From assembly GCA_041910055.1 (NCBI GenBank), contig JAYRRP010000003.1:109973-173972 (forward strand): DNA of 64,000 nucleotides. The letters are read 5' to 3'. The stretch comes from Candidatus Saccharimonadales bacterium. Lineage in GTDB: Bacteria > Patescibacteriota > Saccharimonadia > Saccharimonadales > JAYRRP01. Positions 15,001-18,000 of this stretch are shown in pieces (position 1 is the first letter of the stretch; each line of letters opens with the position of its first letter). A program made the position numbers.

Positions 15001-18000
15001 CATATAAGGCTTTTGAAAGCCAGAATTTACGGCTAAGGGTATGGGTAAACTCAAGACGATTTCCAAAATAGATGACTATGACAAGGAGAATAAGGATGAA
15101 ATCCTACCCACCGATAACAGCTAAAGAATTAGTAGAAATACTGGGTACGACCATTAAGCACGACGATGATAATAAACTAGTCGCCCTGCTCGTGGAGTTG
15201 TCTGCTTATACTGAGGACTCACAGCTAAATCTGAGTTTCAATGCTCCAAGTTCGTCTGGCAAGAGCTTTATACCAATGGAAATCGCCGCACTATTTCCAC
15301 AAGAGGACGTTATTCAGCTCGGCTACGTTAGCCCAACGGCGTTTTTCCATAGCGCAGGCGAGTTTGATAAAGAGAAAAAGCAGTACTTAGTGGACCTGGA
15401 GCGTAAAATTATCATATTCCTAGACCAGCCGCACACTATGCTGCTTGAACACTTACGACCCCTCCTGTCACACGATAAGAAAGAAATTGAAGTTCAAGTA
15501 ACCGATAAAAGCCAAAAGCACGGACTTAGAACCAAGAAAATCATACTACGCGGCTATCCCTCCGTCGTGTTCTGTTCTGCAGGTCTTAGACTAGACGAAC
15601 AGGAAGCTACACGGTTTTTGCTACTTAGTCCTGAAATCAACCAGGAGAAGTTGCGGGCTGGCGTGGTAGAGTCACTCCGTAAAGCCTCAGACCGTGATGC
15701 CTATTGGGACTATACCGAACTCAATCCGCCACGGCAGCAATTACGTGGACGCATAGAGGCTATCAAGGCTGCTAGTGTAAAGAATATCCGCATCACTGAC
15801 AAAGACCGTGCCTACATTGAAGAACGGTTTTTTGCCTCCCGTCCTATGCTCAAGCCACGACACCAGCGTGACATTAAGCGATTGGTTTCACTTATCAAGA
15901 TATTTGCACTGCTTAACTTCTGGCATCGTAAGAATGAAGGTTCAGGCATCGTTGCTAATCGTAATGATATTGAAGCAGCTTTTGAAATTTGGGATAGGAT
16001 AGCCGTGGCTCAGGAGCTTAATGTCCCACCGTTTGTCTATCGCATATATGTTGATGTTGTAGTAGCTGCCTTCATAGAAAAGAATGCCGCGCGATATCAG
16101 GAATTCGTAGACATAACTGGTAGGTTGGGGCTTTCTCGCCAAGAGATAATGACTAAGCACTACGACGCTTATGGACGGACACTAGATGCTACTATGCTTC
16201 GCCAGCAAATACTGCCTATGCTTACCCAAGCGGGGTTGATATACGAGGAGCAAGACCCAAACGACAAGCGCAATAAGCTCGTATTTCCGCAGTTACTTCA
16301 ACAGCCCGAAACAGATACGGAAAATAGTGAGATGGGTGGTGGGGTAAGAAGTGCCGAGAACCAAAAGATTTTGGATGATGTCCGTCAAATATTTGGCGGT
16401 GGTGAATTAATAACCTAAGGAGGAGATATGGATAGTAAAGATAAAGTGTTTGATGAGGTCACAGACTTGCTTCAAGAAGGAGTAGAACGGCTTAAAGGAG
16501 GTGCAGAGTTCACGGAATTAGAAAAGGAGCAGCCAACTAAAGCATCGTGGGTGGTGTTTGATGCCTCGCTTAAACGATATGCCACAGATGTGTACGCCAC
16601 TATTAAGTACGATGATGCCCTAGCAATGCAGAACGAAATTGTCCGACTTATAAGAACAGTGTGGACACCGCAGATACTTGAATATGTGCGTTCAGGAGAA
16701 ATAGAAAACCTGACACTTCGCATAGGTCCCGAAACCTTGAGCGGTTACAACTTGAACGAAGAAAATGGGGTAGATGTTAACAATAGAAAGGAGGCTTAAT
16801 ATCTTACCCACTCCGCAGATAATTAACAAAATGACAATGAGGATGACTATGTACCAACAACTTTTAACAAGCTATAATGTAATCGTTTCCGTATTCAGCA
16901 CCTAGCACAAAGGATTTTTTGTCTCTACTGCTCATTGAGGGCAGCACGGTGCAGAAGGAAGCCTTTGTGCGTCTGGATGCGGAAACAGCCGTGCTGTCCT
17001 TTTTGATTGGGTCTCAACTTGGACGCATCAATTCGGCTTACATTGTAGCGGTATAGAAAGGCACGATGTATGACGAATGCACAAAACTACCCAAACCTAT
17101 TAACAATTACTGAGGCAGCAAATCAGCTCAGGATAAGCAGATGGACAATATATCAACTAATTAGGAGTGGTGAATTGAAAACAATAACTATCGTGAGCCG
17201 AAGATTTGTTGCTTCTGATGATTTAGCCAAATACATAAATGAACGAAAGGCAGTGACTAATGAGGCGACATAGAGGAGATGGCACTATAACCAAACGTAA
17301 AGATGGACGTTGGGAAGCTGCTGCATATGTGAATACGCCAGAGGGAATTAAAAGGGTAAGACGATATGCGACAAGCCGAACGGAAGCGGAGGCAACCCTA
17401 GTCCAGTTAAGGAATAATAATAGTTGGGGTATCCTAACAAGCTCCAGAGAACGGAAATTGGGTGATTATTTAGACTACTGGTTACTAGTAGTGCAGCCCA
17501 CAATCAGACGTGATACTTTCAAGGGTTATGAAGCAATCGTGAGAGTGTATCTCAAGCCTAACTTAGGGCAAAAACAACTCGCAAAACTTAGCGTAGCGGA
17601 CGTTCAATCATTCGTAAATAACCAGTTGGCAATTGGCAAATCAGTTCGCACCGTACAAAAGATGAAAATAGTTCTGTCCACTTGTCTCAAACGTGCAATG
17701 CACGAGGAGCTGGTCGTTAGAAACGTAGCTCGGTTGGTTGATATTCCGACTTATAAGCCAAAAGAAATCATACCTTGGAGCCCAACACAGCTTGGGCAGT
17801 TCTTAGACGTTGCCAGCAACCACCCGTACTATCCAATATATGTAATGCTGTCATTGTATGGACTGCGTAGAAACGAAGCATTAGGCTTATCGTGGTCTGA
17901 CATAGATTTTGATAATAAAGTTATTCATATAAGGCAGCAACTTCATTACGACAAACACACATATAGTTATGCCGATTTGAAAACACAAGCTGGACGTCGT

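Follow-up and report, generated by a model that had tools for sequence, protein, structure and literature searches.

The 64,000-nt stretch of DNA analysed here (the window) carries a 13.5 kb integrative, phage-like element (4926..18458) in which a long nested helix precedes the xis-like and integrase genes, and the question raised by this locus is whether that helix marks a structured RNA and, if so, what such an RNA would do for the genes behind it. A sequence-only reading had pointed to a plus-strand RNA of about 120 nt, made of three stacked helices with an apical loop complementary to its own 3' tail, the RNA being either a pseudoknot or a switch to a terminator-like helix, and the structural part of this interpretation is supported by the comparative sequence evidence given below. 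The host element is demonstrably mobile, because an empty site, with an intact tRNA-Met at the position of the left junction, exists in another sample (L226). Comparison with this site places 12-bp cores at the element's junctions (Table 1), and the 82% repeat 5087-5136 / 18451-18500, a candidate for the att sites, was dropped on that ground.

Table 1. Coordinates of the RNA, its flanking genes and the junctions of its host element in the window.
Feature	Position	Strand	Evidence or remark
Left junction core, GCTTATGAGTCC	4911..4922	.	Both junctions aligned to empty site of another sample (L226)
-10 box, TATAAT	16873..16878	+	Direct reading; spacing matches four genome-derived relatives not selected for it
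P1 5' strand, clamp helix from predicted RNA 5' end	16885..16899	+	Partner 16972-16986
J1/2, 5' side of asymmetric internal loop	16900..16904	+	Family alignment; A-rich in family
P2 5' strand	16905..16913	+	9 perfect bp with 16962-16970
J2/3 5' side, conserved U-rich segment	16914..16924	+	Alignment; family consensus GUUUUUA
P3 5' strand	16925..16930	+	Partner 16952-16957
Apical loop	16931-16951	+	Encloses 5' strand of loop-tail helix
Loop-tail helix 5' strand, GAGGGCAGCACGG	16937..16949	+	13 positions paired with 16989-17001
P3 3' strand	16952..16957	+	Alignment
J3/2, conserved segment	16958-16961	+	Alignment; family consensus GUAG
P2 3' strand	16962..16970	+	Sequence, fold and family alignment
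P1 3' strand	16972..16986	+	Pairs with 16885-16899
Linker from P1 to tail, 2 nt	16987-16988	+	2 nt in 27 of 32 members, 1 nt in 5
Loop-tail 3' strand (CCGTGCTGTCC plus first two U) and U-tract TTTTT (17000-17004)	16989..17004	+	Predicted intrinsic terminator
Spacer from U-tract to xis	17005..17069	+	Starts GATTGG; by eye conserved with L129 and L133
xis-like gene, HTH_17, 67 aa, first gene downstream of RNA	17070..17273	+	Pfam PF12728, E 2e-11
Tyrosine integrase, 406 aa	17260..18480	+	Pfam Phage_integrase, E 1.3e-25; Phage_int_SAM_3
Right junction core, GCTTATGAGTCC	18459..18470	.	Overlaps integrase gene 3' end; junction alignment

Read directly from the window sequence, the TATAAT box lies upstream of the helices as proposed, with the first paired base of P1 exactly 6 nt further on, and G16885 or a neighbouring base is the predicted transcription start. 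The core of P1 (16885-16898/16973-16986) is the 14 bp helix with two G-U pairs that had been described, these falling as U-G at 16892/16979 and 16895/16976, and P2 is likewise present with its nine perfect pairs. P3, earlier thought weak, does exist, reading CUACUG/CAGAAG with one A-A mismatch when aligned to the family, and covaries at all of its pairs; its limits had to be refined to those in Table 1. The J1/2 loop is asymmetric (5-7 nt on the 5' side, 1 nt on the 3' side), and a 3-4 nt insertion just 5' of P3 in the window and in its nearest relative, L133, lengthens the 5' side of J2/3 to 11 and 10 nt, respectively, against 7 nt in 24 of 32 members. The proposed loop-to-tail complementarity is also there: GGGCAGCACGG (16939-16949) is complementary to CCGTGCTGTCC (16989-16999) with one G-U pair, TTTTT is next, and the loop-tail duplex in the window has an energy of -23.7 kcal/mol.

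A covariance model built from two relatives (L005 and L006) recovers 35 loci, 32 of them distinct and the window included, from Saccharibacteria genome bins and environmental metagenomes. The RNAs are ~115 bases long (113-116 nt in the family, about 118 nt in the window), and their carriers are integrative phage-like elements, mostly in Saccharibacteria. The window scores 51.2 bits (E 6e-9) against the earlier model made from L005 and L006 only, and 83 bits (E about 1e-16) against the family model, whose training alignment contained the window sequence. Metagenome members were fetched by a pattern demanding TATAAT, GGGCRGC and GTCCTTTT, and the conservation of these three blocks is partly circular because the retrieval pattern required all of them; five sequences, the window and four genome-derived relatives, are free of this bias. 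Among 109 metagenome pattern matches, 65 represent one chance match in an abundant human-gut organism (106-nt span, structureless), and these were discarded together with 9 further matches that are unrelated singletons. Six divergent variants (L162, L126, L147/L155/L179 and a second copy in L006) differ in sequence and have one plan in common: TATAAT-N6-P1 comes first, next a loop-tail helix (-21 to -24 kcal/mol) and last a U-run. Some of them stand before non-recombinase genes, so the device is not integrase-specific.

Set against Rfam 15 and cultured-phage records, the RNA is a member of an uncatalogued family. A search of Rfam, one of the checks proposed with the sequence-only reading, found no family matching it: at gathering thresholds the 4227 models of Rfam 15 hit only three tRNAs and a cobalamin riboswitch in the whole window, all elsewhere, and with E up to 10 the region 16600-17300 returned only noise, in the form of snoRNA models at 14-18 bits versus thresholds of 45-80. 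Nothing relevant was matched in Rfam by four other members and four divergent variants. In IMG/VR, two DNA patterns and a protein query gave chance matches only, and the covariance models, at E up to 1, rejected the matches at 99 of the 106 looser-pattern loci, these being the loci scanned. A blastn search of 50,697 phage records found no meaningful match, and exact-match look-up of a 448-aa protein gave no record. Within the window the RNA is unique: the full model with filters off detects no second copy in 4000-20000, and the whole window yields a single match under default filters. A repeated element or MITE is ruled out, as no repeat family includes this single-copy RNA.

Covariation, another of the checks proposed, is present in P1, P2, P3 and the loop-tail helix alike. 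Across the family 96% of cells are paired, a share that drops to 37-49% if the partners are offset by 1-3 columns, and among the 32 distinct members double-sided changes occur in 14 of 15 pairs in P1, 7 of 9 in P2 and 6 of 6 in P3, in a nested alignment that was itself fitted to the covariance model. The loop-tail helix is absent from that model; 99% of its cells are paired and four of its pairs change on both sides, as at column pair 75/133, which is GC in 20 members, AU in 12 and broken in none. The loop strand hardly varies over most of its length in the family (GGGCRGC), this block being one that the metagenome search pattern required. Helix lengths are nearly invariant (P1 15, P2 9 and P3 6 pairs) while their sequences vary freely, and the junctions are similarly fixed, with 6 versus 1 nt in J1/2 (25-30 of 32 members), 7 versus 3 nt in J2/3 and a 2-nt linker. 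Unpaired junction and loop nucleotides are conserved in the family alignment as well. A scan of this alignment and its flanks for extra conserved helices returned only P1, P3, the loop-tail helix and trivial A-tract/U-tract pairings; P2 fell below the scan's cutoff because gap columns split it in the fitted alignment.

Both folding energy and substitution pattern identify the transcribed strand, and agree with the plus-strand assignment made at the outset. The minimum free energy of the plus-strand RNA is -50.5 kcal/mol, that of 200 shuffles -35.3 +/- 3.6 (z -4.27, 0/200 as good), and the minus strand reaches -34.1 kcal/mol (z -1.34, 20/200 as good). Across the family helices G-U cells outnumber A-C cells 141 to 21 (64 to 0 in the loop-tail helix), which fixes the RNA strand as plus.

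The two ends of the RNA carry candidate expression signals. The -10 box occurs at a constant distance in all five unselected sequences, as it does in all metagenome members, whose retrieval pattern required it; several members have an extended TGn, and no conserved -35 box was seen in the family. At the 3' end the loop-tail helix is GC-rich, 11-13 bp long and stable (-16.5 to -23.7 kcal/mol, mean -21.1), with UUUU(U) next and at least 4 U directly after it in 5/5 unselected sequences. A stable GC-rich stem adjoining a U-tract is what defines an intrinsic terminator, but where such terminators have a short loop (about 3-8 nt) the two strands here enclose the 3' strands of P3, P2 and P1, a stretch of 39 nt in the window (16950-16988) and of about 40-45 nt in the family. 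A standard terminator scan does not detect this predicted terminator.

Gene order ties the RNA to recombinases. The next gene encodes one at all 35 loci (a large serine recombinase at 30, xis plus a tyrosine integrase at 5, the window included), in keeping with the early placement of the RNA where excision and integration control usually sits. The serine recombinase starts 10-45 nt past the U-run in 29 of 30 loci and 366 nt past it in one. The upstream gene is variable, as is its distance (8 to 1296 nt); a same-strand block of DUF5659 / replication genes ends just upstream of the RNA in most loci, and where other ORFs part the RNA from the replication gene it is the recombinase that the RNA stays beside. 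The GATTGG that begins the window's spacer opens the spacer in many serine-recombinase loci too, followed there by GGAG/GGAA, likely the ribosome binding site (RBS). A simple scan found no sigma-70-like promoter between U-tract and xis (17005..17069), a conserved 65-nt spacer which in tyrosine-integrase loci could conceal an unrecognised promoter.

We favour, with moderate confidence, a model in which this RNA gates integrase expression in cis, by termination close to the promoter, with a terminator assembled as a pseudoknot on a rigid scaffold. Transcription driven by the -10 box would begin with the opening base of P1, the RNA would fold into the three-helix hairpin, and its apical loop would then pair over 11-13 bp with the tail emerging 2 nt past P1, bringing a GC-rich helix against the U-tract to form an intrinsic terminator. 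Termination there would set the amount of transcription that reaches the integration/excision genes, here xis-int. The position of the RNA suggests such a regulatory role, and since the recombinase starts close downstream, with no room or detectable signal for a promoter of its own, the RNA would act in cis. A terminator with paired RNA between its strands is unorthodox, and it would demand that the RNA double back sharply at J1/2 or that P1/P2 open in part.

A more ambitious version of the termination gate, which we hold only tentatively, is a switchable leader RNA of a new class, in which the terminator would exist only when the scaffold folds back and a signal would control that fold-back and thereby decide integrase expression. 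Fold-back, or masking of the loop, might be governed by a metabolite or an alarmone, by a protein of phage or host origin, or by accumulated RNA of the same kind acting in trans, any of which could relieve or enforce termination. As in riboswitches, a conserved covarying domain occupies the 5' leader of the putatively regulated gene; the mutually exclusive terminator and antiterminator pairings typical of riboswitches were not found, the scan of the family alignment and flanks having detected no antiterminator or RBS-sequestering alternative fold. The recombinase gene context suggests no obvious riboswitch ligand.

The -10 box and strong terminator-like 3' end would also suit a stand-alone sRNA of ~118 nt acting in trans, either by binding a protein or by pairing its loop with nascent leader tails. 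In the latter version accumulated RNA would shut off read-through, like P4 CI RNA, and the loop-tail covariation would reflect intermolecular pairing. Invariant architecture and conserved unpaired nucleotides suggest a specific partner, the tyrosine-integrase loci retain the RNA although xis begins 68 nt off, and pairing in trans would avoid the sterically demanding intramolecular contact that a rod-like P1-P2-P3 with a 2-nt linker imposes. We nevertheless consider it unlikely, because RBS and start codon follow the U-run so closely (within about 10-45 nt in most of the 30 serine-recombinase loci) that the recombinase must be transcribed through the element. Moreover, loop-complementary sites in up to 14 kb of flank at 17 loci number 5 versus 2.5 expected and lie at inconsistent positions, the mostly constant GGGCRGC loop strand fits a specificity determinant poorly, and Rfam families including the C4 antisense RNA of P1 and P7 are unmatched. 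A tail-like 14-nt repeat (9124, 14497), considered as a trans target and rejected, is no better than a chance match and would be a poor pairing partner for the loop.

Alternatively, the structure could be a passive boundary, an elaborate terminator of the replication operon whose 5' helix perhaps stabilises the recombinase mRNA, with neither switching nor signal. Its location just after the replication genes in most loci, its strong helix and U-tract, and the failure to find another conserved fold would all agree with this, and mRNA stabilisation by a helix that begins at +1 has precedents. We regard this as quite improbable: a plain hairpin would terminate equally well, yet selection keeps three fixed-length helices, junction sequences, the 2-nt linker and the spacing of the -10 box; the RNA keeps to the recombinase when ORFs separate it from the replication gene; and a promoter immediately ahead of a purely passive terminator would be pointless.

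Translation offers another route to attenuation: on transcripts arriving from upstream, a ribosome reading a short ORF that spans the -10 box and enters P1 would melt this helix and thereby affect formation of the loop-tail terminator. The sequence-only reading had seen no ORF here; the window does possess an 18-codon frame, with an ATG preceded by a GAGGA RBS (16849), in which TATAAT reads as Tyr-Asn and whose stop (16903-16905) falls just past the P1 5' strand. Small ORFs with a Shine-Dalgarno (SD) sequence and ATG are also found in L216, L193, L187, L129, L165 and probably L133, and the upstream gene's stop codon lies inside TATAAT in several other loci. Such an ORF occurs in only about 7 of 32 members, however, with stop positions and frames unconserved, so that a protein-coding explanation is ruled out as a family-wide feature; loop and junction indels of 1-2 nt shift the frame between close relatives, substitutions at paired positions are compensatory rather than codon-like, and transcripts begun at the conserved -10 box would not contain the start codon of the ORF. 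A leader-peptide attenuator is therefore very unlikely.

Least credible is a site acting as DNA, such as an attP, a recombinase or repressor palindrome or a single-strand or replication origin, which a long imperfect inverted repeat beside a recombinase gene and just past a primase/helicase gene, a frequent att or origin position, might bring to mind, but which is at odds with the strand-specific G-U excess, with conservation of complementarity alone and not of half-site sequences, with a loop-tail pairing, -10 box and U-tract that would have no role in duplex DNA, with the lack of symmetric half-sites enclosing a crossover, with a crossover core located elsewhere (Table 1), and with a motif that stands intact inside a 1.1-Mb chromosome contig (L006) and is thus not split by integration.

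If the switchable leader RNA exists as tentatively proposed, it would constitute an RNA-level lysogeny/excision switch common to elements with unrelated serine and tyrosine recombinases. To our knowledge, the timing of integrase expression in temperate elements is understood in detail for few model phages, where control is protein-based or lies downstream of int; a conserved RNA device ahead of two unrelated recombinase families would be a different solution to the problem. Saccharibacteria belong to the candidate phyla radiation (CPR), how they regulate their genes and how their phages live has hardly been explored, and genetic tools for them are few. A terminator whose strands are joined in a pseudoknot on a scaffold of constant geometry would make a test case for tertiary folding that gates termination, natural covariation provides loop mutants, tail mutants and compensatory pairs, and the family model offers a means of annotating integrative elements in CPR genomes.

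Among known systems, intrinsic terminators and promoter-proximal attenuators share with the family an 11-13 bp GC-rich helix with a U-tract next to it, located between promoter and regulated gene, and A residues 5' of the family stem can pair with the first U's, as in intrinsic terminators. The difference lies in the loop, for where those have a hairpin loop of 3-8 nt the family's strands are about 40-45 nt apart and what lies between them is base-paired to the transcript's 5' end. H-type pseudoknot aptamers (preQ1-I, SAM-II, fluoride) span 35-60 nt, and their pseudoknot sequesters an antiterminator or an RBS. They resemble the family in pairing a hairpin loop with a 3' tail, in lying in a 5' leader and in coupling a pseudoknot to an expression signal, whereas the family has a scaffold of about 30 bp in three helices, its putative pseudoknot helix would itself be the terminator stem, and it has neither a known ligand nor an Rfam match.

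Phage regulatory RNAs offer further parallels. The immunity RNAs of P4 (CI RNA) and P1/P7 (c4 RNA) are leader-derived sRNAs with a loop complementary to sites in the same leader, leading to premature termination or blocked expression; they are processed and then act in trans on replication or antirepressor operons. The family's loop is likewise complementary to a site in its own transcript, the tail, which covaries, but the family fronts integrases, has no Rfam match and shows no additional target sites near the element. Lambda PR'-tR' places a terminator immediately after a promoter, as the family appears to do, yielding a short RNA unless overridden by the Q protein loaded at the promoter; tR', however, is an ordinary hairpin under Q control, and among the genes of the window element none was recognised as Q-like or N-like. 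Lambda sib is an RNA structure that controls int, through RNase III, as the family RNA may control recombinases, but it lies downstream of int. The HMP-PP (thiS) riboswitch is reported to nest a small aptamer in an ordinary terminator hairpin upstream of thiamin genes, which makes it a precedent for a sensing structure and a terminator stem being one object and not two competing domains (PMC6478431). The family differs in that a large scaffold lies between the two strands of its predicted terminator, and in that the genes concerned encode recombinases.

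Reading positions 16500-17400 bore out most of what the sequence-only reading had proposed for this region: the TATAAT box, P1, P2 and the complementarity between an apical-loop segment and the tail 3' of P1 (the loop-tail helix) all occur where it had placed them, and only its third helix, P3, needed its boundaries redrawn (see table). Its plus-strand RNA also holds, both from the fold, with a plus-strand minimum free energy of -50.5 kcal/mol against -35.3 +/- 3.6 in 200 dinucleotide shuffles (z -4.27) and only -34.1 kcal/mol (z -1.34) on the minus strand, and from an excess of G-U over A-C cells in the family. 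As it had supposed, no ORF accounts for the region, and short frames there are not kept in relatives. The Rfam comparison it had proposed, made with Rfam 15, returned nothing for the RNA element.

Coordinates of features in the window and in loci of relatives (L-numbers)
Feature	Position	Strand	Remark
TATAAT box	16873-16878	+	
P1	16885-16898 with 16973-16986	+	14 bp, two U-G pairs
P2	16905-16913 with 16962-16970	+	9 perfect bp
P3	16925-16930 with 16952-16957	+	
Loop segment	16939-16949	+	GGGCAGCACGG
Tail	16989-16999	+	CCGTGCTGTCC, then TTTTT
Small ORF	16849-16905	+	MYQQLLTSYNVIVSVFST
U-tract-to-xis spacer	17005-17069		65 nt; AACTTGGACGCA...ATTCGGCTTACATTGTAG
448-aa protein gene	15072-16418		
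Inverted repeat, 23 nt	11928-11950 and 16324-16346		91% complementary; just past the large terminase stop, and at the helicase-like gene's 3' end, encoding a conserved GGGV motif
Carrier element	4926-18458		13.5 kb
Split host tRNA-Met halves	4880-4925 and 18451-18500		
Element's own tRNA-Met	5059-5135		~135 nt inside left end
Direct repeat, 16 nt	5016-5031 and 18360-18375		TTGTAGCCGTCAAATT, perfect; ~85-95 nt inside each junction
Other tRNA-Met genes	31680-31754	-	
	34919-34994	+	
Cobalamin riboswitch	58660-58819	-	34.5 bits, just over threshold
L226 intact tRNA-Met	7248-7324		
L006 second copy	3776-3903	-	
L147 variant	298-425		
L155 variant	1448-1575	-	
L179 variant	7935-8079	-	
L004 long protein	5071-7254		
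L006 long protein	5083-7296		N-terminal Toprim primase domain (Pfam)

The gene just upstream encodes a 448-aa protein with homologues in six genome bins, four of which are labelled Saccharibacteria, Saccharimonadales or Saccharimonadia. In four of the six bins the RNA element directly follows the homologue's gene; there too it combines a TATAAT box, 6 nt ahead of a GUU...AAC clamp helix, with three stacked helices, a GGGCRGCnnnn loop, a complementary tail and a U-run. Two of these sequences formed a first covariance model, which in IMG/VR rejected every looser-pattern match in the 93 loci run; a stricter pattern matched nothing there. A pattern drawn up from five sequences, which enforces three of the family's conserved blocks, was run over metagenome contigs and gave 109 loci. 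Thirty score 30-127 bits with the first model and five are divergent variants recovered only by a second; of the rest, 65 trace to one chance match in an organism of the human gut, and 9 are unrelated singletons. Adding the window and the four loci from genome bins to the 30 gives a family of 35 loci, whose 32 distinct sequences constitute the second model. The window, which was in the training alignment, scores 83 bits with that model; the model also recovers the divergent L162, L126, L147 and L155, as well as L006's second copy, and direct folding gives L179 the same layout.

The 32 aligned sequences were used for counting pairs, the loop-tail helix being entered as a pseudoknot; the P1-P3 alignment is fitted to the model, and the loop-tail helix is absent from the model, so its alignment is not. 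Standard pairs fill 96% of cells, against 37-49% with partners slid 1-3 columns and 78.5% in shuffles. Both-side changes affect 31 of 43 pairs (14 of 15 in P1, 7 of 9 in P2, all 6 in P3). In the loop-tail helix 99% of cells are paired: at column pair 75/133, 20 sequences have GC, 12 have AU and none is broken, and three more pairs with both-side changes lie at positions free of search-pattern constraint. Overall there are 141 G-U cells and 21 A-C cells, and in the loop-tail helix 64 and none; this identifies plus as the functional strand, on which the recombinase gene also lies.

Across the family, lengths hardly change while helix sequences are free to vary: P1, P2 and P3 occupy 15, 9 and 6 positions, the P1-P2 junction J1/2 has 6 nt on its 5' side and 1 nt on its 3' side, J2/3 has 7 and 3 nt, the P1-to-tail linker is 2 nt, and most members total 113-116 nt. 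Mean duplex energy is -21 kcal/mol for the loop-tail helix and -42 kcal/mol for the nested hairpin; the family search found no further conserved helices (antiterminator or anti-ribosome-binding-site). Because the linker is so short and the apical loop lies ~30 bp away in a straight rod, loop-tail pairing needs a sharp fold-back, opening of P1/P2 or two molecules. One possibility is a compact fold with P1 alongside P2-P3, stacked on the loop-tail helix. Two features would fit it, the asymmetric J1/2 as an obvious hinge and the equality of P1 (15) with P2 plus P3 (9 + 6); such a fold would put the transcript 5' end exactly at the P1/loop-tail junction and would account for the unvarying distance between the -10 box and P1.

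The next same-strand gene is a recombinase in 35 of 35 loci. Thirty have a serine recombinase (Resolvase, Recombinase and Zn_ribbon_recom domains in the three proteins scanned), its ribosome-binding site and start codon 10-45 nt past the U-run in 29 and 366 nt in L161; five, including the window, have an HTH_17 xis-like gene, then a tyrosine integrase. What lies upstream differs between loci: a member of the 448-aa family, a protein in which that domain is joined to a Toprim primase, an AAA_25 protein or small ORFs. The spacing to the replication-gene homologue also differs, from 8 to 1296 nt, and the RNA thus accompanies the recombinase gene, of either family. RNA-free relatives of the replication gene exist: in L004 a serine recombinase overlaps it with no RNA element, and the xis-like gene of L001 has no such leader. 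A simple scan of the window found no promoter-like site between U-tract and xis. The intervening spacer is conserved among tyrosine-integrase loci (L129, L133), and neither a consensus promoter nor an ORF accounts for this. The window's small ORF, which has a GAGGA ribosome-binding site, runs through the -10 box, read as Tyr-Asn, and on across the 5' strand of P1; L216, L193, L187, L129, L165 and probably L133 have comparable SD-plus-ATG ORFs, and the rest of the family has none.

The 448-aa protein matches neither a Pfam nor a PHROG family and carries a GKS Walker A motif. Its domain recurs as the C-terminal part of 727-740 aa proteins in L004, L005 and L006, with Toprim at the N-terminus in L006; probably, therefore, it is a replicative helicase domain not yet catalogued. 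The inverted repeat ending in the 448-aa protein's gene may mark a packaging or replication site, or have arisen by chance.

In the divergent variants the sequences differ and the layout persists: TATAAT and, after 6 nt, P1, then a loop-tail helix (-21 to -24 kcal/mol) and a U-run. Two stand ahead of serine recombinases and the others, in mobile-element contexts, ahead of YidD-like or small membrane proteins; the layout therefore appears to be a general promoter-proximal module, mainly for integrases. The L006 second copy (TATAAT, 6 nt, P1 clamp; fold z -6.0), whose loop AAAGCGGCAUCGCA pairs with tail UGCGGUGUCGCUU before a U-run, lies 3.4 kb from the integrase-linked copy in opposite orientation, upstream of small membrane/secreted protein genes. 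The variants of L147, L155 and L179 contain one more internal hairpin and have a 7-nt linker, and the gene after them encodes a YidD-like 73-aa product or a 270-aa membrane protein, so the device is not confined to recombinase genes; that of L179 adjoins terminase-small-like and ParB-methyltransferase genes.

In the window the RNA element rides on an insertion that splits the host tRNA-Met gene. The same flanking host genes on L226, a contig from another sample, enclose an intact tRNA-Met and no insert, which delimits the element and indicates mobility now or recently. It is bounded by a 12-bp core, GCTTATGAGTCC, in the tRNA-Met anticodon loop; the host tRNA-Met is rebuilt at neither junction. 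The unrepaired split and the element's own tRNA-Met look like the 'tRNA-dependent lysogeny' known for actinobacteriophages (PMC10865867), here outside that group. The direct repeats, of which the right copy falls inside the integrase gene, are candidates for arm-type sites bound by the integrase. The element's genes include those for both terminase subunits (large and small), the helicase-like and DUF5659 proteins, Xis and Int; cargo takes up roughly half of its length (HAD hydrolase, LD-carboxypeptidase, kinase, ABC-F and ABC transporter ATPases). With no recognisable capsid, portal or tail genes within it, it could be satellite-like or a decayed prophage, yet it is polymorphic between samples.

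The best-supported reading, to which we give somewhat better than even chances, makes the RNA element a cis-acting termination gate ahead of the recombinase gene. A -10-only promoter would begin the RNA at P1, the scaffold would fold and its loop capture the tail, and the loop-tail helix with the U-tract would end transcription before the recombinase gene; integrase expression would then be set by read-through, basal or induced by some factor. That the element is a stand-alone RNA acting in trans, perhaps in a P4-like self-limiting scheme, we regard as doubtful, and a passive operon boundary or mRNA stabiliser as improbable. A leader-peptide attenuator is very improbable, a suitable small ORF occurring in only ~7 of 32 members. 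The G-U asymmetry and the position of the real att core, which lies elsewhere, contradict a DNA-level site and leave it hardly credible.

The RNA element matches no curated RNA family, our literature search found no published description of it, and we know of no RNA control previously recognised in its lineage and gene context. On the comparative evidence it is a new RNA family, with a putative terminator that takes the form of a pseudoknot built on a fixed scaffold. As a termination gate it would work like an intrinsic terminator or attenuator, but the short loop that defines the terminator is missing. It differs from a classical riboswitch in having none of that class's competing helices, and it shares with H-type pseudoknot leaders the pairing of a loop with the 3' tail.
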